IMG/VR virus record: IMGVR_UViG_3300032053_000016
Span: 32,001-96,000 of that record
From: a virus
Direction: 5' to 3' (one strand)
Length of the DNA: 64,000 bases
Positions within the stretch are counted from its first letter, which is position 1. Every line of letters starts with the position of its first letter. The position numbers and the translations under genes were made by a program. This document shows positions 14,248-49,763 of this stretch, one piece after another. Under the pieces are notes generated by a model. It was given only the letters and a program-made list of their open reading frames with translations. It ran no database searches and was not told where the DNA came from.

Positions 14248-14554
14248 TTGTTGGAACCTTCTCTTCTTCTTCGGTATTCCAACTTTGAGCGAGGCGAATT
14301 GCCACAGTCATAAGGCTGGCGTGAACTCGCTTGAGCTCGTTGTGAATCTGTAACACTCTGGCATCGTTTGCCGCCAATGGCATGTCAAGGATCTTTCCAA
14401 CCACGATGTGAGCCGTGTTGATCGTGTCAAGACATGCTTCAACGGCTAAACCACCGGCATAGGCCGTGTTGTTGATCTTCAACGCTCGAAGTGTGATCAA
14501 CACGTTACCGGTGATGCTCGCTATCAACAGAAGAGACAAGATAACGACGATCAT
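14228..14554 (-). CDS. Small protein with an N-terminal membrane anchor
   Basis: MIVVILSLLLIASITGNVLI hydrophobic stretch followed by a helical region. Confidence 0.6.
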   Translation of the reverse strand: MIVVILSLLLIASITGNVLITLRALKINNTAYAGGLAVEACLDTINTAHIVVGKILDMPLAANDARVLQIHNELKRVHASLMTVAIRLAQSWNTEEEEKVPTSDTDQE

Positions 14555-15750
14555 CCGCCCACCTTCATGAGCACATCATCAAAAACAGCGCTCCAAGCGT
14601 TAGCGATAGCATCTTGACTGTATTTTGCTCGAATCTTCACGCCGAGATCCTTAGCCCACTCACGTGGGATGCTGCACGACGTGTGAAACTTGCGTACGCG
14701 TCGTCTGAAATCTGATTCAGAGACCTCAGCCCACTTCGCTCCGCGTGGGAAGATCTTGTCGTCTGCACGTTCCTTGGGGATCGTCGCCAACGTGCATGGA
14801 AGGTCCACGTAACGCCCAAGACCGAGAAACTCGGTGTGCGCTGACCAACCTGTCGCGATGACGGGCAGATCACACGCAGCTGCCTCCAGTAGTGGCAACC
14901 CAAAGCCTTCACCGCGTGTCGCGCTGACCAGCGCTTTGACGTTCGGGTGACGATACAGTGCAGCGACGGCATGATCGTCAAGGTCGCCGTGCACAAGGTG
15001 AAGCTCTGGAAGCTTCTTCTTCGTGCGTGAAGTAACATCGTTGACAATGTTTCGAACCGTGTTCTCCGTGTGATACGCGTCGAACGTGGTGCTACGACCC
15101 TGATTCGTCTTCAAAAGGATGCCAACGTCTTTGTCGTCGGCGAACTCCTCAAGCAGCCAACGTATCGTGTTGTGCAAGTTCTTGCGATCGGCACGAGCGT
15201 TATCTTGCCCTGTCATCTGCCCAAACACAAGAAACGTGAACAAGGGTAGCGGATCCAACGTTGAAGTGTCGATGTTTGCGTCAAGAAGCGCGCTCGGAAA
15301 ACTCTCAGCGATGACGTGTGCTTTTTCAACAGGAGCGGACCAACCAGCGTTCTTGAGACTGTTGAGCGCGTGCTTAGATGGCACAACAACATGATCCATA
15401 CTGTTACACGCTGTCACCCACTCAGGAACTGATTTGTCAGTTTCAACCGCAGCAGTGACACCAACGTTCACGGTCGCGAGCGTAGGGTTCCATTCATTTG
15501 GCAGCTGGAGTTGGAAGCTCACGTCAGCTTTTCTTGGCAGTGGCTTGCAGCGCATCGCGAGCGCGTTCACAAGCGGATCGCGATCGACGTTCGTGATCCA
15601 GGTCGTGTTCCCCCAATACAACGGCTCACAGTAAAGTTCGATAGAGTCAGCGGCGACGAGACGCATCAACCACTCGCCAATCTGACGTGCGTGCGTGCCG
15701 TATCCCGACATTGTCAGGATGGGCGCGCGCAGGATGACGACGGGTTTCAC
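14551..15750 (-). CDS. GT-B (GT4-like) glycosyltransferase
   Basis: SGYGTHAR N-terminus; TRGEGFGLPLLEAAACDLPVIATGWS. GTG start at 15750 overlaps the upstream stop. Confidence 0.85.
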   Translation of the reverse strand: MKPVVILRAPILTMSGYGTHARQIGEWLMRLVAADSIELYCEPLYWGNTTWITNVDRDPLVNALAMRCKPLPRKADVSFQLQLPNEWNPTLATVNVGVTAAVETDKSVPEWVTACNSMDHVVVPSKHALNSLKNAGWSAPVEKAHVIAESFPSALLDANIDTSTLDPLPLFTFLVFGQMTGQDNARADRKNLHNTIRWLLEEFADDKDVGILLKTNQGRSTTFDAYHTENTVRNIVNDVTSRTKKKLPELHLVHGDLDDHAVAALYRHPNVKALVSATRGEGFGLPLLEAAACDLPVIATGWSAHTEFLGLGRYVDLPCTLATIPKERADDKIFPRGAKWAEVSESDFRRRVRKFHTSCSIPREWAKDLGVKIRAKYSQDAIANAWSAVFDDVLMKVGG

Positions 15751-17000
15751 TTGATCACCTTCTTGGTCCAACGTGGTCGCCTAGAACGCCAGTTGGTGAT
15801 CACGTCATCCAACCCCTTGTCCCATGTCTTGATAAGGTTGTCCATGTCAAACTCCGTGTGAGCGTAACGCATCGCTTTGAGTCCCAACTCCTTACGAACA
15901 TCAGGCTCCATCTTGTACATCTGCCAGTAAGCATCGGCAACAGACTCTGGTTTGACGATGTCTTCCACGATGTACGGCGTGGATTGGCTGCCAACAAGTT
16001 TCTTGCAGTCGACTTCAAGCGGGATGCCGTTGAACGATCCGTCACGGTAATCAATGACTTGCCGCGTCATGCCTCCTGTCTTGTTGGCAATGATGGGCTT
16101 GCCGCACATCATCGCTTCAAGCGTTCCGAGCCCAAATCCTTCAGCGTACGAGATGTTGACGACCGCGTCCGAGATGTTGTAGAGCACACGCATGTCGTCG
16201 AGGTTGAGCTGCTCACGTGAGAACACAACGTTGTTGTTGAGCTTGAGGATGTCAAGGACATGCAACAGGTTAGGCCCTTCGAAATCGTTTGGATCGGTGT
16301 GCATCAACAGCGTTGCCTTCTGATGACCCTCTTCTTGCTGGAGTTTATCAAGGAACATTCGGAAAGACCACATCACATCTGCTGGACGCTTGCGGTGCGC
16401 GTTGCGGTTGACCCATGAAACGACAAAGTGATCTGAGCGGTCTGGCAGTAGACGGTTGCGATGCATCTGCTGCTCACCGACGGGAAGCGGGTAAAAGACG
16501 TCCTTCGGCAAGGCATGTGGAGCCCACTTGACCTTCTCATCGCCGAAGATCGGCTGCAGGAAGTCGTACGTTGGACGGTTGATGCAGAAGAACATGTCGA
16601 CGATGTCGTACACGTTCCTGTTGTAGAGCGGCGGGTACTCACACTGATCCCAGAGATGGTTGTACACGATGGGGCACACCTGGTGGATCTCGTCGTGCAC
16701 TTCAAACATGTTCATGAAGAACCGAGGGTCGTTGAAGATCACGATGGCGTCTGGCTTTTCGGTCGCGAGGAGCTGCCGATAGAGATTCTTGTCGCCGAAC
16801 CCATCGATCGGTTTCACGCAGACGTCGATTCCTGGGACCTGGACGACGTCGTAGTTCTCGTGTTTGATGGCCGCGCCAAGTTGGCAGATCTTGTACTTGT
16901 TGGTTGCGGCGAGCCCGCACGCGAGGTAGCGACTTTGCGTGCCGACTCCTGAACTTGCGAGGAGGTTATCACTGACTAGGACAATCTTCTTCTTTGTCAT
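15747..17000 (-). CDS. GT-B (GT4-like) glycosyltransferase
   Basis: SGVGTQSR, NRNAHRKR, AEGFGLGTLEAMMCGKPII. Confidence 0.88.
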   Translation of the reverse strand: MTKKKIVLVSDNLLASSGVGTQSRYLACGLAATNKYKICQLGAAIKHENYDVVQVPGIDVCVKPIDGFGDKNLYRQLLATEKPDAIVIFNDPRFFMNMFEVHDEIHQVCPIVYNHLWDQCEYPPLYNRNVYDIVDMFFCINRPTYDFLQPIFGDEKVKWAPHALPKDVFYPLPVGEQQMHRNRLLPDRSDHFVVSWVNRNAHRKRPADVMWSFRMFLDKLQQEEGHQKATLLMHTDPNDFEGPNLLHVLDILKLNNNVVFSREQLNLDDMRVLYNISDAVVNISYAEGFGLGTLEAMMCGKPIIANKTGGMTRQVIDYRDGSFNGIPLEVDCKKLVGSQSTPYIVEDIVKPESVADAYWQMYKMEPDVRKELGLKAMRYAHTEFDMDNLIKTWDKGLDDVITNWRSRRPRWTKKVIK

Positions 17001-17033
17001 ATCGCGCTGGTCCGGAATATAAGACGTTTTCGA

Positions 17034-17294: not shown

Positions 17295-17317
17295 GCCGCT
17301 TAATTCATGTTGAGCGA

Positions 17318-18142
17318 TCACGGGCACCACTCCGTCTTCTTGTACTCGCAGTACTTGCAGTTCCACTCACTCTTGTTTTTGATAGCCATGCCACGTTTGA
17401 CGCTGCCGACGAAGTTGTTTAGGACAGTGAGCGTGCGTTTCGACGTCGTGGGGCCGACTGACACAGGGATGAAGCTGCAGAGTTTGCCGGCCTTCGCGGA
17501 TTTTACCGCGATGATGTACGCACATTTGATACGATCGTGTGGGATGTTCGCCTTCGCAGACCAGAAGTTCTTGTACAAGGAGAGCTGATACGTGACCTTG
17601 GGATCCATCAACTTTCGCTTGTCCCACGGTCTCGACGCGGTCTTCCAGTCGATGACCCAGAAGATGGTGCCGTGCTTCTTGTCTGGCACCTCGATGATGA
17701 GGTCGATGAACCCTTTGAAGGCTGTGTCAGCGTGCTGCGCAACATCCAGGATGATGGCCTCGTAGAGGTTGTCCTCTGTCTTGTGAAGCTTCCACTCAGG
17801 GAACTTTGCGTTGAGGAATCCCATCGCCTCGACGGACATCAGGATCGCGCGTTCAACGTTCGCCTCAGGGTCAAACTTCTCACGTTCCTTCGGATCGGTG
17901 ACACGCTCTAGTTCCTGCTTGACAACCCTCAAGATCTCAACACGGTCAGGCTCCTTGCCGTTCGCTCTAGCCTCAACACAGCTGTGGAACGCGGTCCCGA
18001 TGATAGTGGCAGTTCCACGCTTATCAAGATCGATCTTCTTGACATGTTTGAGCAAATGTCGGTAGCTGCAGGTCATCCAGTCACTCATTTCACTGTATGA
18101 CACGTGCGGCTTCCCCGTGGGGAGATGTTTGTAATCGTTCAC
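17318..18142 (-). CDS. PD-(D/E)XK (RecB/Cas4-like) exonuclease with probable Fe-S cysteines
   Basis: SYS...C, GTAFH, KGFIDLI, VIDWKT, QLSLY and C-terminal CKYC...WCP. Confidence 0.8.
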   Translation of the reverse strand: MNDYKHLPTGKPHVSYSEMSDWMTCSYRHLLKHVKKIDLDKRGTATIIGTAFHSCVEARANGKEPDRVEILRVVKQELERVTDPKEREKFDPEANVERAILMSVEAMGFLNAKFPEWKLHKTEDNLYEAIILDVAQHADTAFKGFIDLIIEVPDKKHGTIFWVIDWKTASRPWDKRKLMDPKVTYQLSLYKNFWSAKANIPHDRIKCAYIIAVKSAKAGKLCSFIPVSVGPTTSKRTLTVLNNFVGSVKRGMAIKNKSEWNCKYCEYKKTEWCP

Positions 18143-18252: not shown

Positions 18253-18732
18253 ATGCTCACACGCGCGAAGTTGAACACCCTGGTGGAACGTGTTGTCAGA
18301 CGTCTAAGCGAGGCAGTCCCGCCGCCGGCGACCGCTAAGGCAGGAAACTTCCGCTACAACGCAGCTGGCGAATCCATTCCAGACGAGCAGTCGGCGACGA
18401 GCCCCACGACAGGCACGACCCCCACACAGATGCCACCGACGCAGCATCCACCGACCATGCCGGCCGCGAGAAGCACGACGCAGCAGCAGGCCGACGCGGA
18501 GACGCAAGGCAGCACAATCAGTCGCAACCCGATGGCGCGTCCAAACACACAGAAGACCAACAAGGTCAACAACATCAAGAAGGCGCTCGACGCTCAAGGG
18601 TACACCGCGGATCCTGCCAAAGCGAAGCATGTGACACAAAGCCTCAACGCTTGGTACGATCAGCTCGATCCGTCTGACGCTCTCGTGGCGACCGCAGACG
18701 AGCTTGCCTTGCGATTCGCTGGCGAGGGATGA
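18253..18732 (+). CDS. Hypothetical protein with a T/P/Q-rich linker (possibly virion-internal)
   Basis: 159 aa; preceded by TAGCTA 5 nt upstream; overlaps the kinase start. Confidence 0.6.
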   Translation: MLTRAKLNTLVERVVRRLSEAVPPPATAKAGNFRYNAAGESIPDEQSATSPTTGTTPTQMPPTQHPPTMPAARSTTQQQADAETQGSTISRNPMARPNTQKTNKVNNIKKALDAQGYTADPAKAKHVTQSLNAWYDQLDPSDALVATADELALRFAGEG

Positions 18733-19685
18733 GACTCCTCCGAGCTCTCGTCAGAGGCATGCTTCTCGAGGACGAGGACATGCTCAAGAAATGGGCGCTG
18801 ACGAGCGGCACCCCAGTCGAGCATGAGCTTGCGAAGAAGGGCATCGTCCCGATCCAGCACGGCGCTGAGCAGACATCCAAATTGGGTAGTGGCAGAACAA
18901 ACACGGTGTTGGACGTCATTTACAAGGGACGTCGAGCGGTGGCCAGGATGTCTGAAGATATGGATGAGCTGGACAAAATGGTCAATTTTGTCTCAAAAGC
19001 GAACTCTCTTCCAGCAAAGTATCGCAAGCATTTTCCCAAAATTCTCACGACATTCGATCTCGAGATCGAATCAGAACACAGCATCGAGTACTACTACGGA
19101 GCAGTCGTTGAACAGTTGGATCCCATGCCGCCGGGTCTTGAGTTTGACTTAGACCATCAGAGTCTTGTAGGCAATTTGCAGCGTTCGCGAGCGAGCGCCG
19201 TGTTGAACAACCACAAGCTTGTTGAAGACATTGCTGACGATGCGACTGACATCAAAGATGTTCGTGACGAACTCATCACGATGTATGAACTTGACATCAG
19301 AGGGAAGCTTCTATCGTTTGTTGGCAAACCCATCAACGACTTCGATGAGTACCTCGTTGGTGTGATCGACAAGCATGCTGATGGAAGAAAATTCAACAGA
19401 GCTTACTACAAGTTTGGACGCGGGTTGCTCACGGCGTTGAGAGGCGCCACGATCCCACATGAACCAACATCGTCTAGAGCAGAGAAGCAGGTTGCGATCG
19501 GGCATCCTTCGAGGAAGGTTCGTGAATTCTATGAGTTCCTTGAAGCCCTAAAGAACGCAGGCATGGAGTGGTCTGACCTACACACTGGCAACTTCATGGT
19601 TCGACGCGAAACAGGCGACTTCGTCGTCGTCGATCCAGGTGATTTCCTAGATCTACGTGGTGAAGCTCGTGAACAGTCGTGGTGA
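18729..19685 (+). CDS. Protein kinase-like fold protein
   Basis: KLGSGRTNTV Gly-loop, SDLHTGNFM catalytic loop, VVDPG in place of DFG. Confidence 0.7.
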   Translation: MRLLRALVRGMLLEDEDMLKKWALTSGTPVEHELAKKGIVPIQHGAEQTSKLGSGRTNTVLDVIYKGRRAVARMSEDMDELDKMVNFVSKANSLPAKYRKHFPKILTTFDLEIESEHSIEYYYGAVVEQLDPMPPGLEFDLDHQSLVGNLQRSRASAVLNNHKLVEDIADDATDIKDVRDELITMYELDIRGKLLSFVGKPINDFDEYLVGVIDKHADGRKFNRAYYKFGRGLLTALRGATIPHEPTSSRAEKQVAIGHPSRKVREFYEFLEALKNAGMEWSDLHTGNFMVRRETGDFVVVDPGDFLDLRGEAREQSW

Positions 19686-19688
19686 TCT

Positions 19689-19883
19689 TCAGCGGAACGT
19701 AGCCTTGACAACCTTGCTGTTCTCGATCTCCACACAGACTCTGTCTGTGCGTTCATCTTCGGGGTAGGAGAGGAACGGCACACCGTCGACGCTGATGAGC
19801 CGGAAGAGCATGTTCTTCAGTTCGGCCACGTCCTGCGCACGCTTCTTAGACATCCCAACGAAATCAACGATCGGTGTGGTCAT
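19689..19883 (-). CDS. Small hypothetical protein
   Basis: 64 aa, coupled to the phosphatase gene. Confidence 0.55.
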   Translation of the reverse strand: MTTPIVDFVGMSKKRAQDVAELKNMLFRLISVDGVPFLSYPEDERTDRVCVEIENSKVVKATFR

Positions 19884-20371
19884 GTAGTCGACTCTACGTC
19901 GATCGTTGGCAGTGTTGGACTCTCAGTTTCTTTGAGGTTGTCGATCAACCACTTTGCGAACGTGTCGTTGCACAGCGCCATCGGTCGGCAACTGCGTATG
20001 TGTTCGACACACTCTTCACCAGACCACCCAGTGCGCAAATGAAGTGCCATGGCTGTCACCATGCCGGATCGGTTGAGGCCGGCCATGCATGTGACAAGCA
20101 CCCTCTTGTCTTTGTCAAGCAGTTGAGCGACACGTTGTGCAGCAAGGATCCACGTCGGCAAGAAGCGCATCATGCGGTTGACTCGCACGTCATCGTCCCC
20201 AGGCGCGCAGATCACCTGAACGCCTGGGTACAGCTCTTCGTTTTGATTCTCGCCTGCTGCAAGGACGAGCACGTCAAACCCACGTTTTGCGAGCTCGTCC
20301 CCGTACGGGGGATAAGCGCCTTGATACAACCCTTCGTAGATCTGATTCACGTCGATCGATGGCATGTTCAC
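19880..20371 (-). CDS. Dual-specificity (Cys-based) protein phosphatase
   Basis: VLVTCMAGLNRSG is a CX5R motif; also IYEGLYQG and IRSCRP. Confidence 0.85.
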   Translation of the reverse strand: MNMPSIDVNQIYEGLYQGAYPPYGDELAKRGFDVLVLAAGENQNEELYPGVQVICAPGDDDVRVNRMMRFLPTWILAAQRVAQLLDKDKRVLVTCMAGLNRSGMVTAMALHLRTGWSGEECVEHIRSCRPMALCNDTFAKWLIDNLKETESPTLPTIDVESTT

Positions 20372-20378
20372 ACTCTAG

Positions 20379-29798: not shown

Positions 29799-29802
29799 AC
29801 GT

Positions 29803-39636: not shown

Positions 39637-39648
39637 GTTTGTCTCTTT

Positions 39649-40581: not shown

Positions 40582-41468
40582 GCGGTCTTATCGTAGTTCT
40601 CTACGCACCAGTCGATGACCTCTTCAGCCGTGCGTGGGTGGTAGCCGGTGCTCTTCAACTTCTCGATGTTGAGCACCGTGTTTACACGCTTTACCTCGAT
40701 GGAGTCAAGGTACTCCTGGTAATCGACCGGCTGTGGATCGAGCTTCGGGTTGAGCTTCACGAGCTTGACCGCGATCTGATACGGCGAGATGGTGCCTTCG
40801 TTCGCGCAGTTGAAAATGCCAGTGGCTCTGACCTTCAACAGGTGATCCACCATGTCGCAGAAGTTCTCGATGCAAGTGATGGAGTTGGCGCTCTCGATGA
40901 ACCGCGCGGGGGCTGGCACGCTCAGGAACTTCGTCAGAAGGTTCGTCTTGTATGGGATGGCGCTGACCAGCTGCCGCGGTCGCAGGATCAGCACAGGCAC
41001 GTCCAGCTTCGCGTTGAGGATCATCTTGTCTGCTTCGGCTTTGGAGAAAGCGTAGAAGCTCGCCGGCGTGGGCTCGTCCTCCTCGCTGTACTCCTTTTCG
41101 GTTCCCATTCCGTCGAACACGCAACCTGATGAGATGTGGATGAGCTTCCACCCGAGTGCGTCGCAAGCTTCGGCGACGTTGAGCGCGCCGAGGGTGTTGA
41201 CCGCGTAGCATTCCTCCTTGTTGTGTTCACAATATTCAAGATTAATGAGAGCTGCTGTGTTGATGACGACGGGGTTGAGACTGTCCACCACATGGTCAAG
41301 GTCGCCCTTTGCTCGAAGGGCGAGAACTGCCTTGTCATGCGCCGCTTTCATGACCTTCGCGAGCTTCAACGGCTTGTCCGTGATCTCGATGTCCTTGTGA
41401 CCAAGAACAACGTCTCCGGGTTTCTTGAGTTGCTGCGCGAGCTTGCCGTTGCCGATGATGATCCTCAT
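40578..41468 (-). CDS. dTDP-4-dehydrorhamnose reductase-like protein (possibly bifunctional 3,5-epimerase/4-reductase)
   Basis: VINTAA...CE, VNTLG, HISSGCVF, SFYAFSKA, ILRPR, NLLTK. Confidence 0.75.
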   Translation of the reverse strand: MRIIIGNGKLAQQLKKPGDVVLGHKDIEITDKPLKLAKVMKAAHDKAVLALRAKGDLDHVVDSLNPVVINTAALINLEYCEHNKEECYAVNTLGALNVAEACDALGWKLIHISSGCVFDGMGTEKEYSEEDEPTPASFYAFSKAEADKMILNAKLDVPVLILRPRQLVSAIPYKTNLLTKFLSVPAPARFIESANSITCIENFCDMVDHLLKVRATGIFNCANEGTISPYQIAVKLVKLNPKLDPQPVDYQEYLDSIEVKRVNTVLNIEKLKSTGYHPRTAEEVIDWCVENYDKTA

Positions 41469-42247
41469 TTGAACTCCTTTGTGACCTTCGAAATGAGGTC
41501 TATGTCTTCTTTGAACGCACGATTGCGCATCATCTCAGTCGCGCGCTGGTAACTTTCATGTGTTCCAGCATCGACCCACCCGTCTTCCACACGGAAAACA
41601 TGACCAGTGTGAAACGCGGACTTGACATACGCCGAGTTGACGTCGGAGATCTCGTACTCACCACGCGCGGACGGTCTGAGCCGCTTGATGATCTGGAAGA
41701 CGTCAGCGGAGTACAGGTACAACCCAAGCACCGCGTCAGAGCTTGGTAGCACGTCAGGCTTCTCGACAATGTCTTCAAGACCACCGTCGACACCGTACTT
41801 TGCCACACCGAAACGCTTCGCGTCCGGCAACTCCTTCACAAAGAGACCAAAGTCCGTCTTCTTGTCTTGGGCAAAGAACGCGATGTCAGCCGCCACGTCG
41901 TCCACGTTTTCAAAGATGTTATCGCCGAGGATGACGGCAAATCGATCCTGTCCAACAAAGTTTTCGCATAGACCAAGCGCAGCAGCGATGCCGTTCGCGT
42001 TGTCTTGAACCCTGTACGTCATCTGACACCCGTACTCCGAGCCTGAGCCGAGCAACGACATGATCGCTCCAACATGCTCAGTGCCAGTGACAAGCATGAT
42101 GTCAGTGATGCCAGCTTTGAGGAACACGTTGAGAATGTGCACGATGATCGGCACCTCACCCATCGGTAGCAACGCCTTGTTGGTCACCCGTGTCAATGGG
42201 TAGAGTCGAGAACCAGTGCCGCCTGCGAGAATGACGCCCTTCATCAA
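41465..42247 (-). CDS. rmlA: Glucose-1-phosphate thymidylyltransferase
   Basis: GVILAGGTGSRLYPLT...NKALLP, LGDNIF, EKP, SARGEYEISD, WVDAGT. Confidence 0.92.
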   Translation of the reverse strand: MMKGVILAGGTGSRLYPLTRVTNKALLPMGEVPIIVHILNVFLKAGITDIMLVTGTEHVGAIMSLLGSGSEYGCQMTYRVQDNANGIAAALGLCENFVGQDRFAVILGDNIFENVDDVAADIAFFAQDKKTDFGLFVKELPDAKRFGVAKYGVDGGLEDIVEKPDVLPSSDAVLGLYLYSADVFQIIKRLRPSARGEYEISDVNSAYVKSAFHTGHVFRVEDGWVDAGTHESYQRATEMMRNRAFKEDIDLISKVTKEFK

Positions 42248-43314
42248 CGCGAAATATAGCGCTTTGTTTGGGAACTACTTCGAATCGCCATCAAGAGGTT
42301 GAAGTCAGTCCACCCTTGAGATACATCGTACTTGAGACGCTGACCTCCTTGTGTGATGACATGATCAGCGAAGTTGTCGACTAGAACTTTGAGCGCTTCC
42401 TGTTGATCGTTGAGATGATCAGTCTGAGCTTCCCAAGCGTGTGTCTCCAAAAGAGGACCGTCTGGTTTGTAGAGCTCACCGAGGATCGACTGCGTCTTTC
42501 CGGCGAAGCGGCCTGGGTTGACCCTGACAAGCATGGTTGAGTGGTCGGGTCCTTCAAGAGCCACCCTGATGTTGAGATCGTTGTCGTGGTTCACGATCGA
42601 AGCGCACGACGTGTAGATGCGCAACGAGCATGGAGAACGATACTTGCAACGGTTGTAGAGTGAGCTGAAGTTGTAGATGGCCACCTCGCCGGTAGCGAAT
42701 CGGATCTGCCCGCTCTCCCAGTTCTCTGTGTGTCCGTGCTGTGACACGCCGTTGCCGTCTTTGAACGACGCCATTGGGACGCCGTGCGACATGCCGCAGA
42801 CCTCGATCGGCACCTTGTCGAAGCCGATGTAGCGTCGAAGCTGCGCGAGACCATGGTACTCGAACGTGCGAAAGTCGTTGACAACCGTGTGAGGCTTGCC
42901 GTATCGGCTATGACCTAACACGTTCATCTTGAACTGCTCAGACGGCAGCCAAGGCGTCTGCTCGGCGATCTGAAAAGGAATACCCTTCTTCTCGGCCTTG
43001 GTGACCACGTCCTTGGTCCAAACAGGCGTCTCGGCCATCAACGGCTTGCCGTAATCGAGGCATCGTAAAGCGATCTCAGTGAGCGCCGAGGAGTTGACCG
43101 CGATGACGAGCGCGTCGCTCGAGCGCGCCAACCTGTCGAGATCCGCGTAACGTGTGTACCCAAACGCATCGATGAGCTTTTGGCCTTTCGCGAGGTCGCG
43201 GTTCCAGAACCCGCTCACTTCGATGTCGTTGTTGGAGTTGAGGACAGGTGCGTACATGTCGTGCACACGTTTGCCTGCTCCAACGATGCCGATTCGTAGC
43301 TTGCCAACTGTCAT
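42244..43314 (-). CDS. Gfo/Idh/MocA family oxidoreductase
   Basis: RIGIVGAG, GKPLMAETP, AEQ. Confidence 0.75.
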   Translation of the reverse strand: MTVGKLRIGIVGAGKRVHDMYAPVLNSNNDIEVSGFWNRDLAKGQKLIDAFGYTRYADLDRLARSSDALVIAVNSSALTEIALRCLDYGKPLMAETPVWTKDVVTKAEKKGIPFQIAEQTPWLPSEQFKMNVLGHSRYGKPHTVVNDFRTFEYHGLAQLRRYIGFDKVPIEVCGMSHGVPMASFKDGNGVSQHGHTENWESGQIRFATGEVAIYNFSSLYNRCKYRSPCSLRIYTSCASIVNHDNDLNIRVALEGPDHSTMLVRVNPGRFAGKTQSILGELYKPDGPLLETHAWEAQTDHLNDQQEALKVLVDNFADHVITQGGQRLKYDVSQGWTDFNLLMAIRSSSQTKRYISR

Positions 43315-43484
43315 TTTTCATCCTTCAGCAGGTCGCGAACCTGCTCCAACACCTCGTCAAGTGTGTCACGTCGACTGTCCCACGCACCCTCGCGTTCAGG
43401 ATCGGAGACGTACGGGTTGCCGCCGTAACCCACTGTCATCTCATGCTCCAACCACGCTTTCAGGTACAACAGTTTGTCGTTCAT
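43311..43484 (-). CDS. Small hypothetical protein (MNDKLLYLKAWLEHE...)
   Basis: Translated by hand; coupled at both ends. Confidence 0.5.
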   Translation of the reverse strand: MNDKLLYLKAWLEHEMTVGYGGNPYVSDPEREGAWDSRRDTLDEVLEQVRDLLKDEK

Positions 43485-44212
43485 CGATCCTTCTCTCTTC
43501 GCATGACGTAACGATCGTGTAACGTCGCGTGCCCTTGCTTATCAGCGAACCGCTTCTGATACTCGTGCTCAGAAGCGAACGAGTACATGACTCTGACAGA
43601 TCCGCACGGGTTCTTGTCTGCTACGACACCGTGAAGCATTGAGGACTCGAACATCAATACGCGGTCGTTCGACGACTCAAGTACCTCGTTCTCGTACTTG
43701 GAGATGAGCATCGCGTCAAAACGCTCGTCGTTCGCCATACACCGATGCGTGCCGCGCACGAACTTCAAACGTGGTTCTGGTATCTCAAACGTCGGGTAGA
43801 AATTGATCTTCACCACGGGGGGAAACGCGCCCACGATGGGGTTGCGATCGAACTGGTACGCGTCACGGTGCCAATCTTGGTGCGGAGGACCTGGCATCTG
43901 CTTGACAACCTGAGCGTGAACGAGCGACAGCTTACGACCCACGATGTCCTCGAGCAGATACGGGAGCTCGTTCGCGAACAAGAAATCCAAGAAGATGTCG
44001 TCGTAATCGTAGACGTTCGGGCGTAGATGAAAAACGTTCTCCATCCTCTTCTCGTAGAAGAAGCCAGCACGCACGTCGTCGTTCCACAGCTTCTCGAGCA
44101 CGTCGACCATGAGCTTGCTGGATCCATGATCCACAGGCAACAGATCGAACCCGTTGGCGTAGAACCTCTCTTGCGGTAGCAGTTTCTCCTGATCGAAGTC
44201 GACGAGTCTCAT
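43481..44212 (-). CDS. PhyH-like 2OG-Fe(II) dioxygenase
   Basis: QDWHRD, FVRGTH, MLHG, R near the C-terminus. Confidence 0.75.
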   Translation of the reverse strand: MRLVDFDQEKLLPQERFYANGFDLLPVDHGSSKLMVDVLEKLWNDDVRAGFFYEKRMENVFHLRPNVYDYDDIFLDFLFANELPYLLEDIVGRKLSLVHAQVVKQMPGPPHQDWHRDAYQFDRNPIVGAFPPVVKINFYPTFEIPEPRLKFVRGTHRCMANDERFDAMLISKYENEVLESSNDRVLMFESSMLHGVVADKNPCGSVRVMYSFASEHEYQKRFADKQGHATLHDRYVMRREKDR

Positions 44213-45147
44213 GTTGCTACGACGAATTTTAGCACGTCTTCGTAGGCTTTCGCACACTTCACGATGTCAACAGACGACGGATCAGCACGACGACCTTCCA
44301 TCATGAGCGGCAACGTCACTGTCGGTGTGACGTGTGGAGGATTATCGTAATCAACCAATCCAAACTTGTACTCCTCATGGTCAGAGACGACGACGCCGTA
44401 CCTCTCGCCTACCAACTCCTTGGTGCCACCTTCGCTGGAGCAGATCACGAGACATCCTTGCGAGATCGCCTCAACCACGACATTTGGACAGTGATCTAGC
44501 CATGCGAGGTGGATCATCCAGTCAGCGATGGAGTAAACCTCTGCACACAGATCGTGACGGATGCTGCCGGCGTAGAAGATGTCCTTGTCGGCCACCTGAA
44601 CGTCGGGGTTGTTACCGAGCACGATGAGGCACGAGCTTGGATGCTGCGAAGCACGGATCGACTTGAAGACTGCGATGTTGTCGATCAGACGTTTCTGCGG
44701 GTGCCAGTTCGACGAGCAGACGAAGACCTTCTTGTAACGTTTACGGATCTCAATCAACGCTTCACTTCGCAATGTTGCAGGGGCGATCTCGATGCCGTTA
44801 GGAATGACACGCCCTGATCGTGCACCAAACCACTTCGTGGTCATCTGCTTGTCGAACTCACTCTGCCAGATGACGTAACTGGCTGCGTCATACGCGGCGT
44901 GGATGCCACGGTTCATGCCGGACGCCATTTGCTCAGGTTTAAACCAGATTCCATCGAGGCGTTGCACAAACGGCTTCTTCGGATCGAGCTTCGTTGACGG
45001 CTCGATGAACACAAGGGCGGCGTCGTAGTCGTCGGGATCGGCCACGATGTGTCCAAGGTTGCCCAAAGCTATGGCAAGTCGCTTAGCGAAGCAGTTGGGT
45101 CCGGTGTGTTCGGCGTTGAAGTCAACGCCGTCAAAAAATACCTTCAC
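44209..45147 (-). CDS. GT4-like glycosyltransferase
   Basis: GPNCF, RLDG, QSEF, DHCPNVVVEA, GGTKE. Confidence 0.82.
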   Translation of the reverse strand: MKVFFDGVDFNAEHTGPNCFAKRLAIALGNLGHIVADPDDYDAALVFIEPSTKLDPKKPFVQRLDGIWFKPEQMASGMNRGIHAAYDAASYVIWQSEFDKQMTTKWFGARSGRVIPNGIEIAPATLRSEALIEIRKRYKKVFVCSSNWHPQKRLIDNIAVFKSIRASQHPSSCLIVLGNNPDVQVADKDIFYAGSIRHDLCAEVYSIADWMIHLAWLDHCPNVVVEAISQGCLVICSSEGGTKELVGERYGVVVSDHEEYKFGLVDYDNPPHVTPTVTLPLMMEGRRADPSSVDIVKCAKAYEDVLKFVVAT

Positions 45148-45326
45148 GCATCCTCAGCTTTCTCTAGCGATTCCATCGCCACCTGGACTCTAAGGCTCGC
45201 TCGAACGTAGCCACCGTGATCACCATTTTCTAGGCATTCAATGGCTCGACAAATGTCTTGTTTGATCTCGAACTCCAAAAGTCGAACGTACAGATCATTG
45301 ACGTCGCTGGAGGGATCCTTCGTCAT
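45144..45326 (-). CDS. Small hypothetical protein (tandem paralog A)
   Basis: VRLLE...AIECLENG..GYV. Confidence 0.5.
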   Translation of the reverse strand: MTKDPSSDVNDLYVRLLEFEIKQDICRAIECLENGDHGGYVRASLRVQVAMESLEKAEDA

Positions 45327-45477
45327 CTCTGTACCACTTTTCGATGTTTTCACAGGTTTTAACGTAGCCTTCGATGTTCCCGGCTTCCAAACACGAGATA
45401 GCGTAAAGACACTCGCCTTCCAACATGGCTTCTTTCAACCGCACGCCGAACGTCTCACGTTTCTTATCGCACGCCAC
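45295..45477 (-). CDS. Small hypothetical protein (tandem paralog B)
   Basis: VRLKE...AISCLEAG..GYV; start codon uncertain. Confidence 0.5.
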   Translation of the reverse strand: MACDKKRETFGVRLKEAMLEGECLYAISCLEAGNIEGYVKTCENIEKWYRDDEGSLQRRQ

Positions 45478-45922
45478 GACGCTTGAGCTCGTCCATGATG
45501 TCTCCCGCGAAGCTCGACTCGCTGAACAGGCCTGCGATGAGGCGGATGTCCTGCAGTGGGACGCGATCAAGCTTGCACTTCGTGTACACGGGGTGGACGT
45601 CGTGCTTCCACGTGTCCTCTTCACGTGTGATGATCGTGCTGTCACCGATCTTGATGGTCTCGTACATCTTCTGTGCGATCCAGCAACGTGCATCCTCATG
45701 GATGTTCTGCGATCCCTTCGCGAACACGTTGTGAACGGTCTCCGACACGCAGTCGAACATCTCCTCCATGGTGTCCTTGTCAAGTTTACGGGTGCCGTCC
45801 GCGAACTTTTGGAGCTTCATCCCGAGGTGGTACGACAACACGTCTAGAAAGCGAGGGCCTCCAGGTTTGCCAACGTTGGGCGGGATGGTGACAGGGTGGC
45901 GTGGTTTGGGTTCGTCGTTCAT
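45464..45922 (-). CDS. Hypothetical protein
   Basis: 152 aa, coupled to the upstream gene. Confidence 0.6.
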   Translation of the reverse strand: MNDEPKPRHPVTIPPNVGKPGGPRFLDVLSYHLGMKLQKFADGTRKLDKDTMEEMFDCVSETVHNVFAKGSQNIHEDARCWIAQKMYETIKIGDSTIITREEDTWKHDVHPVYTKCKLDRVPLQDIRLIAGLFSESSFAGDIMDELKRRGVR

Positions 45923-46650
45923 GTGATAAATCCTCTTTTACGCAAAAATTCCGCTTCTTCTTTTTGAAAGCGAGCGTCGTCAGTCTGAAATGTAGCGGGG
46001 CTCATGTCACAACGGTAAGCGTACATTGTGATCGGCACGTGAACGCGTTTCTTAGCAAGTGCGAGCACCGGCAAGTAGATCGCTTGGTCGCCGGCACGTT
46101 TGATGTACTCGCCGTCAGCGCCGCGGTAGTTGGCGTCGAAGACATGTTTTGACACGCTCTTCTTCCAAGTCTTGAAGTGACTAGAGACCCATGGGTGTTT
46201 ATACGGGTCAACGCCAGACGGCAATGCTGCCGAGATGTTTTGGTTTGTGATCCCGTTCTGATCAAACCAGCGATGATTGCTCCAAGCAGCCTCTAGATCT
46301 GGGATCTTTTCGTAAGCAGTCGCCATGATCTCAAGTGCGTTGAGGTCACAGAGGTAGTCGTCTAGGTCGAGACGGCAGACGATATCGTCATCATCCATCT
46401 GCGACATGGCTAGGAGAACGTTGTATACCTCCCATCGCCGTTCCTTGTTGCGAACGACGCTGACTTTGTGTTCGATTCCAAGCCACGTAGAGTACGTTTC
46501 GACTTGGTCAGCGGTGCCGTCAGTAGAGCAATCGTCCACGATCACCGCGTACCAATTGGTGTAGCTTTGACCGGCCATTGAGACAAGCGTCTGCCACATG
46601 GTCTTGACGCTGTTACGTGTGGGGATAGCGAAGGCGAATGTGACGCTCAT
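45919..46650 (-). CDS. GT2 glycosyltransferase
   Basis: IPTRN, IVDDCSTDGT, RLDLDD. Confidence 0.85.
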   Translation of the reverse strand: MSVTFAFAIPTRNSVKTMWQTLVSMAGQSYTNWYAVIVDDCSTDGTADQVETYSTWLGIEHKVSVVRNKERRWEVYNVLLAMSQMDDDDIVCRLDLDDYLCDLNALEIMATAYEKIPDLEAAWSNHRWFDQNGITNQNISAALPSGVDPYKHPWVSSHFKTWKKSVSKHVFDANYRGADGEYIKRAGDQAIYLPVLALAKKRVHVPITMYAYRCDMSPATFQTDDARFQKEEAEFLRKRGFIT

Positions 46651-46799
46651 TTACACTCACAAGCTGGACAGCGTTTAGACTCGATCGGTTGTTCGGTGAT
46701 CTTGATCATGCACACTGCTCCCTGGTACGTTGCCTTGCATTCAAACACCGAGGTGTTGTGATGACAGCCGATAAGAAACAAAAACACGAGAAACTTCAC
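46647..46799 (-). CDS. Small Cys-rich putative lipoprotein (MKFLVFLFLIGC...)
   Basis: Translated by hand; short hydrophobic signal with a LIGC lipobox; coupled at both ends. Confidence 0.45.
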   Translation of the reverse strand: MKFLVFLFLIGCHHNTSVFECKATYQGAVCMIKITEQPIESKRCPACECK

Positions 46800-46969
46800 G
46801 GTGAACCATCGTTCAACTCACGCAGTAGCGCGATGAATTCCTCCAGTGTAGCGTAGTCACATCCGGCTGCGCCCGCAGCCGAATACACTTCATCAAGATC
46901 TGACAGCAACCCATCCACATCTTCGGGCGTGAGGTGGATGTCACCCTTGTCATCTGCGTAGACGTTCAC
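46796..46969 (-). CDS. Small acidic hypothetical protein
   Basis: Translated by hand (MNVYADDKGDIHLTPED...); coupled at both ends. Confidence 0.45.
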   Translation of the reverse strand: MNVYADDKGDIHLTPEDVDGLLSDLDEVYSAAGAAGCDYATLEEFIALLRELNDGSP

Positions 46970-47742
46970 CAGTCCCAGGTCTCCGACACCACACTCAGCT
47001 TCGCCTTGTTGGCGACAGCGCCTTCACGTGTGAGAAGCAGTTGCCCGTAACGGATCTTCTCGTCTGGCCAGCGACGATCGTCAAAGAAGACGCGACGATC
47101 CATGATGATGAGCTCACTGCTCACGTCGGCAGGCAGATCGCACTCCTCAAGCGCTTCGTGCACCTGGATCGCAGCGTCGGTGCCCTTGTCCATGTGCCAG
47201 TCGTCGAAGAGGCAGAAGCAGGACCACATGTCTTTCACACCCTCCCAGTCGCCACGGACCGCAGGAGCTGTGTGATCACCGTCGATGAACACGAGATCGT
47301 ACTTGTCGTTCATCTTTGGCAAGACGTCAGCCGACTTCCCACGCGCAACCTGAATGCGACTTGTCCACTCCGTTGGGAACATCTGCGCGATCATCTGCAT
47401 GTGTTGATCGTCTAGCGCCGGCTCAACCACCATGACCTGCCCGTCGTTTCCAAGCTCAGCGAACGCCTTCGCGGCGCACAACGCGGAGTAACCGCGGCCG
47501 AACCCGATCTCAAGGTACGAGTCAAGCTTGTACTTCTTGATGAGCGAGTAGATGAGCAATCCACGCTCGAGGTTGGGTTTGAAGAACGCGCCCACTGTGC
47601 GGAACAGTTCAGAGTTAGGATCACGGAGCTTCTTCGCGGTGGCTTCTCCAATGTAATCGAACTCCCCTAACGAGAGGGATTCAACCGGCATGCTGATCTC
47701 GGCGAGCTTGTCTTTGATGTTGACGTTCTTGTTGGGCTTCAT
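46966..47742 (-). CDS. Class I SAM methyltransferase (Methyltransf_24-like)
   Basis: YLEIGFGRGYS, DLVFIDGDH, LFDD. Confidence 0.8.
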   Translation of the reverse strand: MKPNKNVNIKDKLAEISMPVESLSLGEFDYIGEATAKKLRDPNSELFRTVGAFFKPNLERGLLIYSLIKKYKLDSYLEIGFGRGYSALCAAKAFAELGNDGQVMVVEPALDDQHMQMIAQMFPTEWTSRIQVARGKSADVLPKMNDKYDLVFIDGDHTAPAVRGDWEGVKDMWSCFCLFDDWHMDKGTDAAIQVHEALEECDLPADVSSELIIMDRRVFFDDRRWPDEKIRYGQLLLTREGAVANKAKLSVVSETWDW

Positions 47743-49763
47743 GTGTTACTCGTGACGGTAGTTCGCTTCTTAGGCAAGATCCCGAGGTTTTGTAGTTCTT
47801 CCGGAGGTCTGACGTCCTTCAATGTCATCCACGGTGTTTTTTGTCCAAGATATTTGGAGTGCCAGACGTGACCACCCGTCTTCTCTGCAAGCTCCTTCGC
47901 TCGCTCCTTGATGTCAAGATCGGTGACATCGCTCCACGCTTTGTCAAAGAACATGTTGGTCTCCGCGGTGTCAACGTACTCCTTGCCCTCAAGGACGTTC
48001 CAGTGACGCGTCCAGAAGTCACGGTAGAGGCGGATCTTACGCTCGATGTCGAGCCAGCTGGCGTGGTACACAGACGGCACATTCTGCACGACACGACTGA
48101 ACCAGTCCTCGTACATGAGCAACGCCTTCGGGTCGCCTGTCAACGCTAGACGACGAATCTGCTCCATCTCGTTCGTGAGGAAGCCGAGAAACACGATCGG
48201 CTCGCCGGTGTTGACGTCGATCGGGTCGCAACCGTCTGTGCCAGGCAAGGCAACAAGGCGACCTTCCGCATCCTTGGATCGCAGGTGAACTGGCACGCCG
48301 TGCCCGATTCGCGGGGAGTTACGGCTGACGCGCCACTTCCACGGTGTGACATCGAGTCGCACCTTGTCAAGTCCACCCCAATACTCGACGACTGGGAGTG
48401 ACAGCATAGGGACCGCCTTGGGGAAGTTGCCGACGAGCTCGCGAACCTTCTTCCAGTCCTCCTTACGCACGAGCTCGTCGACGTCCATCTGCCAGACGAA
48501 GTCGCCGGTGCAACGCTTGCGTGCTTCGGCCTTCTGCATGCCGTCGAAGAGGGCGGAACGAGGGTCGGACCAGTCACGCTCGACAACATGAACCTTGAGT
48601 CGCGACTCGTGATTCAGTTCAATCGAATGTTCACCAGGCTCTTTTGCATTCGGCAGCAGGTTCGAACGTTGAAGCGCGTAGAGTTTGTCACGCGTTTCAT
48701 CTGTGGATCCCGCATCAACCACCACGACCTCGTCGCAGAAGCCAAGCATCGACTTGATGCACTCCTCGAACGGGTACTCCTGCTTCACGCAGTTGAACGT
48801 CGTCGCGTAGCCGGACAGTGTCACCTCCTTAGCCATCGAGCGCGCCGTTGCGCGCCAGAAGACCGCTGGAGCCCCTCGAAGGTACTCCTCGATGTGCGTC
48901 AGGTCATCAGTGGCGAACCACGATTCTTTGGCGTGTTGAACGTGGTCGTTGAGTCTCAACTCGCAACCGAGCAACTTCGCTTCAATGACGAGGCGAGGGC
49001 ATGTGTCGCCGCCGGCTGGGCAGAACACGAGACCCTTCGCGCCAGCGAGCTTGCGCAGCATTTGATCGTACGAGACGCCGCCGATCAGCTCGTAATCGAG
49101 CTCGTCACGTTCAGCGTTGTACACCGACAGTTCGGTGCCTTTCACCCACGAAGTAGACTGGAGGATCAACCACTTGTCAGACTTGACGATGCTCTCTGAT
49201 CGAAGTGCTTCGATCGTGCGAAAGAAGCGGTCGTCGAAGACGCTGGAGAGCACGGTGTTGGGGTAGTCAACAAGGAACGGGAAACGGTCGTGGTAAGTCT
49301 TCTGCTGCTCTTCACTCATCCACCAGGTGTGCTCGGCGGCAGACATGAAGCTGGAGACGACGTTGCCAAGCTGAGTCGTGTGACAGTCACACGGCTTGCT
49401 CTCGTTGAGCTCATGTTTTTCAACCGATCGGTACTTGCAGAACTTGTAATCACACTCCACGATCGAGTAACGAAGGTTGGTCGCGATGGAAGGAAAGAGC
49501 TGGGACTTCAGGCTCGAGTAGTTCCCGAACACCCAGAACTTCTTTGCTCCCTGTTTGATGTGCTCGATCGTGAGCTCTGAACAGAGCATCTTGTGCACCT
49601 TCAAAGGTGCAGCGTCGATCAACGCTTGAAGCGTCAACTCGGCGCCTCCAATGAGTTGCTCAGGGTAAGCGTCCGACACGAAGACGATCTGAGCGTCCTC
49701 CGGAAGGAGCGTGTTGAAGTTAAGTTTCGCGAATAGGGATCCGTCTTGTCTCACGCCTGTCAC
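47739..49763 (-). CDS. Fused GT-B + GT2 glycosyltransferase
   Basis: N-terminal half: GGAELT, WVKG, DTCPRLVIEAKLLG. C-terminal half: DEVVVVDAGSTD, QMDVDE. Confidence 0.8.
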   Translation of the reverse strand: MTGVRQDGSLFAKLNFNTLLPEDAQIVFVSDAYPEQLIGGAELTLQALIDAAPLKVHKMLCSELTIEHIKQGAKKFWVFGNYSSLKSQLFPSIATNLRYSIVECDYKFCKYRSVEKHELNESKPCDCHTTQLGNVVSSFMSAAEHTWWMSEEQQKTYHDRFPFLVDYPNTVLSSVFDDRFFRTIEALRSESIVKSDKWLILQSTSWVKGTELSVYNAERDELDYELIGGVSYDQMLRKLAGAKGLVFCPAGGDTCPRLVIEAKLLGCELRLNDHVQHAKESWFATDDLTHIEEYLRGAPAVFWRATARSMAKEVTLSGYATTFNCVKQEYPFEECIKSMLGFCDEVVVVDAGSTDETRDKLYALQRSNLLPNAKEPGEHSIELNHESRLKVHVVERDWSDPRSALFDGMQKAEARKRCTGDFVWQMDVDELVRKEDWKKVRELVGNFPKAVPMLSLPVVEYWGGLDKVRLDVTPWKWRVSRNSPRIGHGVPVHLRSKDAEGRLVALPGTDGCDPIDVNTGEPIVFLGFLTNEMEQIRRLALTGDPKALLMYEDWFSRVVQNVPSVYHASWLDIERKIRLYRDFWTRHWNVLEGKEYVDTAETNMFFDKAWSDVTDLDIKERAKELAEKTGGHVWHSKYLGQKTPWMTLKDVRPPEELQNLGILPKKRTTVTSNT

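Follow-up and report, generated by a model that had tools for sequence, protein, structure and literature searches.

A glycan-synthesis island with conserved ends and an exchangeable cassette in a huge T4-like phage, and its possible role in virion glycosylation

Introduction

What does a bacteriophage do with some 35 kb of genes for making and decorating glycans, and to which molecule would such a glycan be attached? The question is raised by a 64,000-nucleotide stretch of viral DNA (the window), which corresponds to bases 32001-96000 of the 107,401-bp linear IMG/VR virus record IMGVR_UViG_3300032053_000016. A preliminary description, made from the letters alone, had placed a glycan synthesis and decoration island at positions 14551-49763 and had argued for cytoplasmic glycosylation of virion proteins and against conversion of the host O antigen. 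The limits of the island were drawn correctly: its first gene is a family 4 glycosyltransferase (GT4) at 14551-15771 and its last a two-domain glycosyltransferase (GT) at 47739-49763, both on the minus strand, as are nearly all of the open reading frames (ORFs) between them.

Here, we compare this island with its counterparts on related viral contigs and weigh the candidate targets of its product. The contig is a fragment of the genome of a huge T4-like phage; CheckV puts its completeness at 29%, and the full genome would thus come to roughly 350-370 kb. We propose that the island may be a self-contained, wholly cytoplasmic glycan factory of this roughly 350-kb phage and that it glycosylates a virion protein or another phage-intrinsic protein, a proposal to which we give somewhat less than an even chance. 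Among the readings considered, virion glycosylation leads and remodelling of the host envelope comes second. What is new here is the layout of the island (fixed anchor genes around an exchangeable cassette), a fusion GT family confined to phages, a probable GT4 heterodimer, and a pointer to two cultured phages that carry part of the system.

Results and Discussion

Conserved ends and an exchanged cassette

Eight loci were obtained by scanning viral contigs for the 674-aa fusion GT that closes the island. In what follows, G000 denotes the record to which this contig belongs, and its relatives are G001 (132 kb), G002 (267 kb, 78% complete), G003, and G005. G001 is collinear with the whole 34.9-kb island and has 35 of the 41 ORFs in common with it (39-86% identity); it is without three homing endonuclease genes, a capsid fragment, one methyltransferase gene, and a DUF2188 gene. 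Only six ORFs are common to all four relatives, namely, the GT4 pair, a PD-(D/E)XK nuclease, a 312-aa GT4, a 243-aa GT2, and the fusion GT, besides a generic match to a short-chain dehydrogenase/reductase (SDR). The GT4 pair and the nuclease are kept at the end next to the baseplate genes, and the other GT4, the GT2, and the fusion GT at the end next to PhoH. These anchor GTs are 41-50% identical in G002, G003, and G005.

Between the conserved ends, the cassettes of the relatives are completely different. That of G002 encodes a DegT aminotransferase, a PglF/CapD-type dehydratase, two formyltransferases, a GNAT protein, a UDP-galactopyranose mutase, a carbamoyltransferase, a PfkB kinase with a cytidylyltransferase, and a GT9; that of G003 encodes a GDP-mannose dehydratase, DegT, GNAT, NeuB, CMP-sugar synthetases, and a protein like the GT29 sialyltransferases; and that of G005 encodes NeuB, two cytidylyltransferases, a radical-SAM/SPASM enzyme, and FkbM methyltransferases. 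By their predicted sugars, the cassettes among the relatives are those for amino and formyl sugars, galactofuranose, heptose, and nonulosonic acids. The nonulosonic-acid pathway lies at L018:3930-7598 in G003, where it includes the GT29-like gene, and at L019:10383-13954 in G005. The islands measure about 35, 35, 26.5, 28, and 24 kb, as judged from the locus coordinates.

We infer from this layout a division of labor in which the five anchor GTs (the GT4 pair, the GT4, the GT2, and the fusion) would build a constant core glycan on an acceptor that belongs to the phage itself and is conserved, most likely one virion protein or several. The exchangeable cassette would contribute additional GTs, tailoring enzymes, and activated sugars of uncommon kinds, by which the outer part of the glycan may be diversified between related phages.

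The anchor glycosyltransferases

The GT4 pair (14551-17000, minus strand) consists of 14551-15771 (406 aa) and 15747-17000 (417 aa), which match PF00534 at 2e-8 and 1.4e-13 and both keep the E-x7-E motif. Orthologues are found in G001, G002, G003, and G005 at 41-85% identity, and the pair is joined to the baseplate-proximal genes downstream on the same strand by 4-nt overlaps or short gaps. On the other side of the pair lies the PD-(D/E)XK nuclease gene (17318-18142, minus strand; Cas4/RecB-like, PF12705 at 1.6e-20), which adjoins the pair in all four relatives and also in immuto and Mel-JY01, cultured phages of Bacteroidota and Cyanobacteria. In the latter two, the nuclease-GT4-GT4 trio stands in the same order at 24-35% identity. 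Since this order recurs across phages whose hosts belong to different phyla, a host-specific acceptor seems unlikely. On the viral contigs L008, L009, and L010, the fusion GT is itself split, and a PD-(D/E)XK nuclease gene stands between its GT-B and GT-A halves.

Structure prediction suggests that the GT4 pair probably works as a heterodimer. The predicted heterocomplex scored an ipSAE of 0.86, whereas none of the three controls exceeded 0.00, with a partner pLDDT of 91 and 100% contact agreement between runs. In calibration, 116 of 157 solved complexes scored that high, as did 2 of 215 mismatched pairs; the complex was run on our own five-row alignments, so that the calibration is only approximate here, and the score may owe something to resemblance to solved GT-B dimers.

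The anchor at the PhoH end is the 674-aa protein (47739-49763, minus strand) that the preliminary description had called a GT4-GT2 fusion, and predicted structure and Pfam bear this out. The model (AF2, pLDDT 89.2) has a GT4-like GT-B fold over residues 22-312, which matches sucrose-phosphate synthase (6kih) at a VIA Z of 20.0 (root mean square deviation, 3.2; 272 aligned residues), HepE at 19.7, and BshA at 19.5. It is followed by a C-terminal GT2-like GT-A domain, with PF00535 over residues 322-459 and an invariant DxD motif (D427 and D429), for which the best Foldseek matches are SunS/ThuS, TarS, and RmlT (1e-9 to 1e-7). The GT-B assignment comes from the fold search and not from profile comparison; the latter, made against the GT4 of the island, gave a 27-column motif match only (probability, 3.7%; E value, 0.012) and was set aside.

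The fusion GT is essentially phage-only. Among 8000 scored metagenomic candidates, 2077 were homologous at an E value of 1e-5 or below, and the best 120 were all at least 48% identical and lay on contigs of up to 351 kb. None was found among 50,697 cultured-phage records. A pattern search of 185,579 species genomes, of limited sensitivity, gave nine loci, all of them on contigs of metagenome-assembled genomes (MAGs) with inconsistent taxonomy. These contigs (L023-L031; assigned to Gammaproteobacteria, Pelagibacter, Halobacteriovorax, Methylococcaceae, and others, one of them 305,838 bp long) are probably mis-binned contigs of huge phages.

Absence of membrane machinery

No Wzx/Wzy, ABC transporter, or initiating transferase had been recognized in the island at first inspection, and this holds on closer search and extends to the relatives. 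The models for the initiating transferase (PF02397 and PF00953) matched nothing in the five records G000, G001, G002, G003, and G005 (controls were positive in 10 and 12 of 14 genomes), nor did those for Wzx (PF01943), Wzy (PF04932), and ABC-2 transporters (PF01061), for which 13, 10, and 14 of the 14 control genomes were positive. A Kyte-Doolittle scan of the island and the homologous loci of five relatives turned up no polytopic membrane protein, taken as an ORF with at least two hydrophobic segments, save one 126-aa ORF on the opposite strand in G005. Soluble GT4 and GT2 enzymes normally act on host undecaprenyl-linked intermediates. The absence of Wzx and Wzy is therefore weak evidence against remodelling of the host surface, because such enzymes could make use of initiation and export by the host.

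The cassette of this contig

The preliminary count of about 11 GT genes comes down to 10 that are supported and an 11th that is a lead only. Pfam GT domains occur in nine (named here by their first coordinate: 14551, 15747, 24510, 27689, 37261, 38220, 44209, 45919, and 47739). GT4 is above the Pfam cutoff in 14551, 15747, 27689, and 44209; 37261 matches PF13524 (1.1e-10), 45919 is a GT2 (7.8e-16), and 47739 has a GT2 domain; the scores of 24510 and 38220 fall below the curated Pfam cutoff. The tenth gene (33010-33801, minus strand), which has no family match, is assigned by fold to the GT-A enzymes of GT8/GT6 type. It has an invariant DxD motif, and its predicted structure (AF2, pLDDT 94.7, from a 17-row alignment) resembles retaining GT-A enzymes, with Foldseek matches to LARGE1 (1.3e-7), LgtC (9.4e-7), and the blood-group enzymes GTA/GTB, in the range of ~1e-7 to 1e-6 and at a TM score of about 0.5. 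Homologues begin at residue 66-70 of the query, so that the ORF as listed (33010 to 33996) starts some 66 codons too early. The lead is 35216-36349, a candidate GT-B that a language model matched (0.87-0.89) to viral GT1-like clusters. Comparison of 35216, 33010, 22942, and 42244 with PDB sequences gave nothing useful.

Further genes lie in four minus-strand blocks. Positions 24510-28612 hold the GT-B-like gene 24510, methyltransferase genes 25496, 26221, and 26883, and GT4 gene 27689, as assigned by Pfam and PHROG. Positions 34054-38262 hold a NanM-type sugar O-methyltransferase gene (34054; TIGR04371, 1.4e-21), the lead 35216, an ORF without assignment (36540), and the GT-B-like gene 37261. 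These are followed, at 38220-43314, by the weak GT4 match 38220, the DUF2188 gene (39400), and a putative 6-deoxyhexose group made up of genes for RmlB-like (39649), RmlD-like (40578), and RmlA-like (41465) proteins and the Gfo/Idh/MocA oxidoreductase gene that had been predicted (42244). The last block, at 43481-47742, comprises a weak PhyH-like gene (43481), the conserved GT4 gene (44209), a further ORF without assignment (45464), the conserved GT2 gene (45919), and an O-methyltransferase gene (46966). The G+C content is 0.58-0.62 at window positions 34001-38000, compared with about 0.53-0.55 elsewhere in the island. The genes of this patch (the sugar O-methyltransferase, two of unassigned kind, and one GT) are common to G001 only and, given this and their high G+C content, may have been acquired horizontally.

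As to the sugars, the families that had been named as rmlA, rmlB, and RmlD-like are present, but all three proteins score below the NCBIfam equivalog cutoffs, and their specificity is therefore not fixed: 191.7 bits on rmlA (cutoff, 360.65), 290 bits on the dTDP-glucose dehydratase model (365.1), and 98.2 bits on rmlD (224.05). RmlC (PF00908) had no match at an E value of 1 or below in the 107-kb contig, with the control positive in 11 of 14 genomes. The GDP-mannose 3',5'-epimerase (GME)-like SDR (31326-32336, minus strand) stands on firmer ground, as the preliminary description had it: it is similar over its full length to Arabidopsis GME (PDB 2c59; phmmer E value, 4.8e-93; 315 bits), its residues 21-334 aligning with residues 34-342, and the next family reaches at most 91 bits. 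The donors made here might be a nucleoside diphosphate (NDP)-6-deoxyhexose, formed through the RmlA-, RmlB-, and RmlD-like proteins in a route that would do without RmlC, and, judging from the similarity to GME, GDP-L-galactose or GDP-L-gulose.

The gene described as Ugd is a short form (21976-22932, minus strand). It has the N-terminal and central domains of an NDP-sugar dehydrogenase (PF03721, 6.5e-28; PF00984, 1.4e-17), covering positions 2-295 of the 413 in TIGR03026, but is missing the C-terminal UDP-binding domain. This domain (PF03720) is absent from G000, G001, G002 (78% complete, as noted), G003, and G005. We considered whether the gene had been split by the neighboring homing endonuclease, with the 110-aa ORF at 20720-21052 as its C terminus; PF03720 gave no match to that ORF at an E value of 5 or below, nor did it match elsewhere on the contig, and the idea was dropped. 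The short form recurs in G002 and G005 and is conserved in at least four related phages (L014:17016-17873 and L019:6590-7456 among the loci), which argues for a conserved variant and against a recent break.

Five genes encode S-adenosylmethionine-dependent methyltransferases (25496, 26221, 26883, 34054, and 46966), as had been counted. Only 34054 exceeds the cutoff of a sugar O-methyltransferase model (TIGR04371, NanM type, 77 bits); 46966 matches an O-methyltransferase family, and 25496 (PHROG_56, 8.9e-10) is more like a DNA methyltransferase. Three or four of these enzymes may O-methylate the glycan. Of the two dioxygenases first proposed, one is solid, a prolyl-hydroxylase-like 2-oxoglutarate (2OG)-Fe(II) oxygenase (29803-30591, minus strand; PF13640, 2.6e-18; NCBIfam peptide-modifying YhhC, 9.5e-10), whereas the other is the weak PhyH match at 43481 (E value, 0.039).

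Phage origin and the baseplate flank

A cellular or chimeric origin of the contig is ruled out by phage genes on both sides of the island and by the recurrence of the same layout on independent viral contigs. Directly downstream, and in the same direction, lies a baseplate module (8403-14554, minus strand) with a Baseplate_J-like gene (8403), a gp25-like gene (10262), and conserved genes of unassigned function (11696-14554). Its junctions are tight: the ORFs overlap by 4 nt at 14551/14554 and again at 13081/13084 and stand 2 nt apart at 11693/11696. The flanks of the island also encode TIG/LamG fiber-like proteins, a ClpP-type prohead protease, and PhoH, and farther out the contig carries genes for RtcB, an RNA ligase, Thg1, a sigma-70-like factor, DNA methylases (N6/N4 and C5), and HNH/GIY-YIG endonucleases.

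Among 50,697 phage records, none matched the contig at the DNA level, and the baseplate protein had distant kin in only six (28.5-30% identity), among them an uncultured 484-kb phage, Microcystis phage Mel-JY01, and Flavobacterium phage immuto. Nor did a common regulatory signal emerge. The T4 late-promoter consensus had no match in the 64 kb, a sigma-70 scan was no better than shuffles (7 found, 9.9 expected), as was a terminator scan (22 versus 17.6), and neither 9-mer enrichment nor inspection of the intergenic regions of the window revealed a shared promoter.

What the glycan may be attached to

Glycosylation of the virion is favored by the cytoplasmic-only design of the island, by how closely the GT4 pair is joined to the genes near the baseplate, and by the precedent of the giant viruses (see below). 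Of the argument made in the preliminary description, the membrane-free premise stands and has been joined by phage-specific anchors; the acceptor, and the exclusion of host remodelling, do not follow from it. Virion glycosylation is accordingly the leading reading and not an established one, because no acceptor has been identified in the virion and because the absence of Wzx and Wzy is weak evidence.

Several further points weigh against it. Just 29% of the genome is in hand, the genes for the major capsid protein and the tube are not on the 107-kb contig, and the credible ORFs of the contig contain no mucin-like Ser/Thr/Pro tracts. The GT4 pair of immuto does not adjoin the baseplate genes, and a role in virion glycosylation offers no explanation for the constant linkage of the PD-(D/E)XK nuclease to the GTs. 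O-antigen and capsule loci also use soluble GT4 and GT2 enzymes on lipid-linked intermediates, for which the host could supply the membrane parts, and the acceptor that all these phages share could lie on the host side, as a conserved lipid intermediate, instead of being a phage protein. Finally, an enzyme of G002 that resembles pyrimidine hydroxymethylases keeps a link with DNA possible.

A more specific version of the virion reading, which we consider possible but a little less probable than the general one, is that these are a widespread clade of aquatic phages of roughly 300-370 kb with a "serotype locus" for their own particle. Here, the phage-only anchors would put a core glycan on a virion protein and the outer glycans, of bacterial type, would be swappable: a methylated 6-deoxyhexose and L-galactose in the phage analyzed here, and formylated amino sugars, galactofuranose, heptose, or nonulosonic acids like sialic acid in its relatives. 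If so, the locus would be a bacteriophage counterpart of Mimivirus fibril glycosylation, and the surface chemistry of the particle would be under diversifying selection, for example, for evading grazers, host defenses, or adhesion to debris.

The best-surviving alternative, although somewhat less likely than the virion reading, is that the phage GTs and sugar pathways act on host undecaprenyl-linked O-antigen, capsule, or exopolysaccharide intermediates at the cytoplasmic side of the membrane and use host initiation and exporters, so that the surface of the infected cell changes. The benefits proposed are superinfection exclusion, avoidance of readsorption to debris, and evasion of grazers. 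This is how the polymorphic glycan clusters of jumbo cyanophages are interpreted in the sections of the literature that treat them (PMC7824862, section 3.4.10; PMC12801897). The families concerned (GT4, GT2, RmlA/B, Ugd-like, DegT, and NeuB) are those of O-antigen and capsule loci, the conserved flanks and variable center recall bacterial serotype loci, and TarS and RmlT, to which the GT-A half of the fusion GT bears a likeness, decorate teichoic acid within the cytoplasm. Yet neither an initiating transferase nor a flippase, polymerase, or ABC permease was found in any of the five records, and the anchor GTs are maintained among G002, G003, and G005 and recur in phages whose hosts are of different phyla. 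In addition, the fusion GT is missing from all genomes other than MAGs in the pattern search described above, with its limited sensitivity, and the time for recoating a cell is short in the case of a virulent T4-like phage.

It is improbable that the product is a soluble or secreted glycoconjugate, free of virion, DNA, and envelope (for example, a glycolipid, a polymethylated cytoplasmic polysaccharide, or a small molecule or peptide bearing sugars), with which the phage manipulates its host or competitors. The many O-methyltransferases and the peptide-type 2OG oxygenase would suit such a product, SunS and ThuS, to which the fusion GT-A domain is closest in fold, are glycocin S-glycosyltransferases, and the carbamoyltransferase and radical-SAM/SPASM genes of the relatives are typical of natural-product pathways; Iyer et al., in the relevant part of their paper, weigh a secondary metabolite as the product of a second cyanophage cluster (PMC7824862). 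On the other hand, no precursor peptide, lipid-synthesis gene, or exporter was recognized, the SunS/ThuS matches are generic for GT2, and the anchor-plus-cassette layout and tight baseplate coupling fit a structural role better.

Least probable of all is hypermodification of DNA, in which some or all of the GTs would glycosylate hydroxymethyl-pyrimidines and the linked nuclease would degrade unmodified DNA. The constant nuclease linkage would suit it, and GTs of both folds, GT-A and GT-B, are used by phages to attach Kdo, heptose, and di- or trisaccharides to 5-hydroxymethylcytosine, as set out in portions of a preprint (bioRxiv 10.1101/2023.12.21.572611). G002 also encodes a 330-aa ThyA-family protein (L020:384-1376, at ~252.6 kb) whose best PDB match is CMP 5-hydroxymethylase (3e-47, 165 bits; thymidylate synthases reach 97 bits at most). 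The protein is also similar to SPO1 gp29 and to gp319 of Bacillus phage G, and these likenesses make hydroxymethyl-pyrimidine DNA plausible in the lineage. However, this gene lies ~130 kb from the island; no ThyA-family gene was found on this contig, on G001, G003, or G004, or in the complete genome of Mel-JY01; and that of immuto (280 bits on the Pfam thymidylate-synthase model) is read as canonical. In immuto DNA, liquid chromatography-UV-tandem mass spectrometry detected dA, dC, dT, and fdPreQ1 only, and no glycosylated base appears in that account (PMC10516641, nucleoside results). Moreover, ten or eleven GTs and several O-methyltransferases far exceed the DNA glycans described in the portions of the preprint referred to (10.1101/2023.12.21.572611), and the contig carries the N6/N4 and C5 DNA methylase genes listed above. 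A search for TET/JBP enzymes gave no match, and its control was equally silent, so that it is uninformative here.

Comparison with known systems

That the size of the island is exceptional for a phage, as first claimed, is an overstatement, and clusters of this kind are known: according to passages on their glycan genes, the jumbo cyanophage S-SCSM2R has 22 such genes, including 13 GT genes (PMC12801897), and P-SSM2 has a 15-gene cluster (PMC7824862). Like our island, the clusters of P-SSM2, S-SCSM1, and S-SCSM2R combine many GTs with NDP-sugar epimerases and dehydratases, nucleotidyltransferases, and methyltransferases in a large myovirus and are polymorphic in content, and these same passages describe no measurement of their target (PMC7824862 and PMC12801897). 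Compared by content, the present system differs in that it belongs to another lineage, in that fixed anchor GTs, including the phage-only fusion and the probable GT4 heterodimer, flank the variable part, and in that the block abuts a baseplate operon.

The giant viruses offer a further parallel. Mimivirus fibrils are glycosylated through clade-specific glycogene clusters of 6-33 genes, and in Mimivirus, CroV (a 38-kb, 34-ORF cluster), and chlorovirus, as far as the sections on these clusters go (PMC9614988), one finds the same traits as here: a whole pathway from sugar nucleotide to GT, soluble multidomain GTs, no membrane machinery, bacterial-type sugars, clade-specific content, and similar size. 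Fold matches of the fusion GT in BFVD include multidomain GTs of Mimiviridae, Klosneuvirus, and Tupanvirus, although at TM scores of 0.2-0.3 they amount to a generic likeness. Unlike our glycan, which is read from genes alone, the fibril and capsid glycans of the giant viruses have been determined chemically. Also unlike the giant viruses, the phage has a bacterial host, so that host lipid-linked pathways are available as an alternative route.

Among phages, virion O-glycosylation has reportedly been described by Freeman et al. in 2023 for the mycobacteriophages Che8, Corndog, and Myrna. Soluble mycobacteriophage GTs, in some cases with O-methyltransferases, glycosylate capsid and tail-tube subunits, as cited in a part of PMC12619734. 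Those cassettes have one to four GT genes and no sugar-nucleotide pathways, unlike the island described here, and no mycobacteriophage is among the nine phage records that match GT4 15747, the single GT searched, at an E value of 1e-8 or below. Moraphages, in the description given in excerpts of the same source (PMC12619734), resemble our phage in being large aquatic phages (up to 307 kb) with several GTs, four of which are core orthogroups; DNA, the host serotype, and the virion are listed there as possible targets. The text of PMC12619734 names neither immuto nor the IMG/VR identifiers and MAG contigs found here, and a literature search turned up no paper on Mel-JY01.

O-antigen and capsule loci, too, have conserved flanks and a hypervariable center, and they unite NDP-sugar genes and GTs (RmlA/B, Ugd, DegT, NeuB, GT2/GT4, and methyltransferases) in one block; the phage islands differ in having no initiating phosphoglycosyl transferase, Wzx/Wzy or ABC transporter, or ligase. 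With the phage DNA-glycan clusters of Pyle et al. (C5-MT/5mYOX or ThyS plus GT), our system shares GT-A and GT-B enzymes, sugar-activating genes, and, in one relative, a hydroxymethylase-like gene. Those clusters are small, however, and stand beside base-hydroxymethylating enzymes, none of which is adjacent here.

Large glycan clusters of phages are by default annotated as host-surface modification. To our knowledge, the target of such a cluster has been measured in no jumbo phage. The fusion GT, with its more than 2000 metagenomic homologues, may serve as a marker protein for asking whether the type of cassette follows the host or the phage, and immuto and Mel-JY01 are cultured carriers of the conserved trio in which the target is measurable; the DNA nucleosides of immuto are already known. 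If the virions are in fact glycosylated, this would bear on phage-host recognition, on detection of phages by predators and immune systems, and on the design of phage particles.

Interspersed genes and minor observations

Homing endonuclease genes are inserted between the glycan genes, with overlapping ends. One is TnsA/HNH-like (21341-21979, minus strand; PHROG_15137 endonuclease, 1.3e-8) and has no G001 homologue; a second is of the GIY-YIG/NUMOD3 type (28594-29241, minus strand; TIGR01453, 9.8e-17) and is absent from G001; and a third is NUMOD3-like (32291-33157, minus strand; PF07460, 3.4e-7), for which 49 residues align in G001 and no counterpart was found there at 50% or more coverage. 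Another lies outside the island at window positions 2704-3390. In the 289-nt gap after the first, ARAGORN called a tRNA-like gene with an odd anticodon loop, to which it assigned no identity (21175-21253, minus strand), a call that is unsupported, as Rfam gave no match in the window at the gathering threshold.

A 232-aa ORF (23815-24513, minus strand) is in part a capsid fragment: by BLASTP, its residues 100-201 align with positions 448-562 in the G001 major capsid protein, which is gp23-like (49% identity; E value, 2e-33), and its N-terminal 99 residues lie outside this match. It has no counterpart in the syntenic island of G001 at 50% or more query coverage, and its place in the glycan island could be meaningful or fortuitous. 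In this lineage, the gp23-like capsid protein is 636-651 aa long (L032:415-2325 in G001; L033 in G002), and its match to Pfam Gp23 is split by ~200 residues between profile positions 77 and ~117-128, a gap that we read, from the composition of the protein, as a probable large insertion rich in Gly, Ser, Thr, and Ala.

Positions 18253-21052 hold two plus-strand ORFs (one with a weak kinase match), a DSPc-like gene (19880-20371), a PTH2-like gene (20379-20723), and the 110-aa ORF mentioned above, all common to G001 only. Neither some 5 kb of the island (17.0-22.0 kb) nor the three homing endonuclease genes belong to the glycan set. A second DSPc-like phosphatase gene lies at 30749-31186; both are on the minus strand, match PF00782 (3e-12 and 5.1e-5), and have homologues in G001 at 76% and 86% identity.

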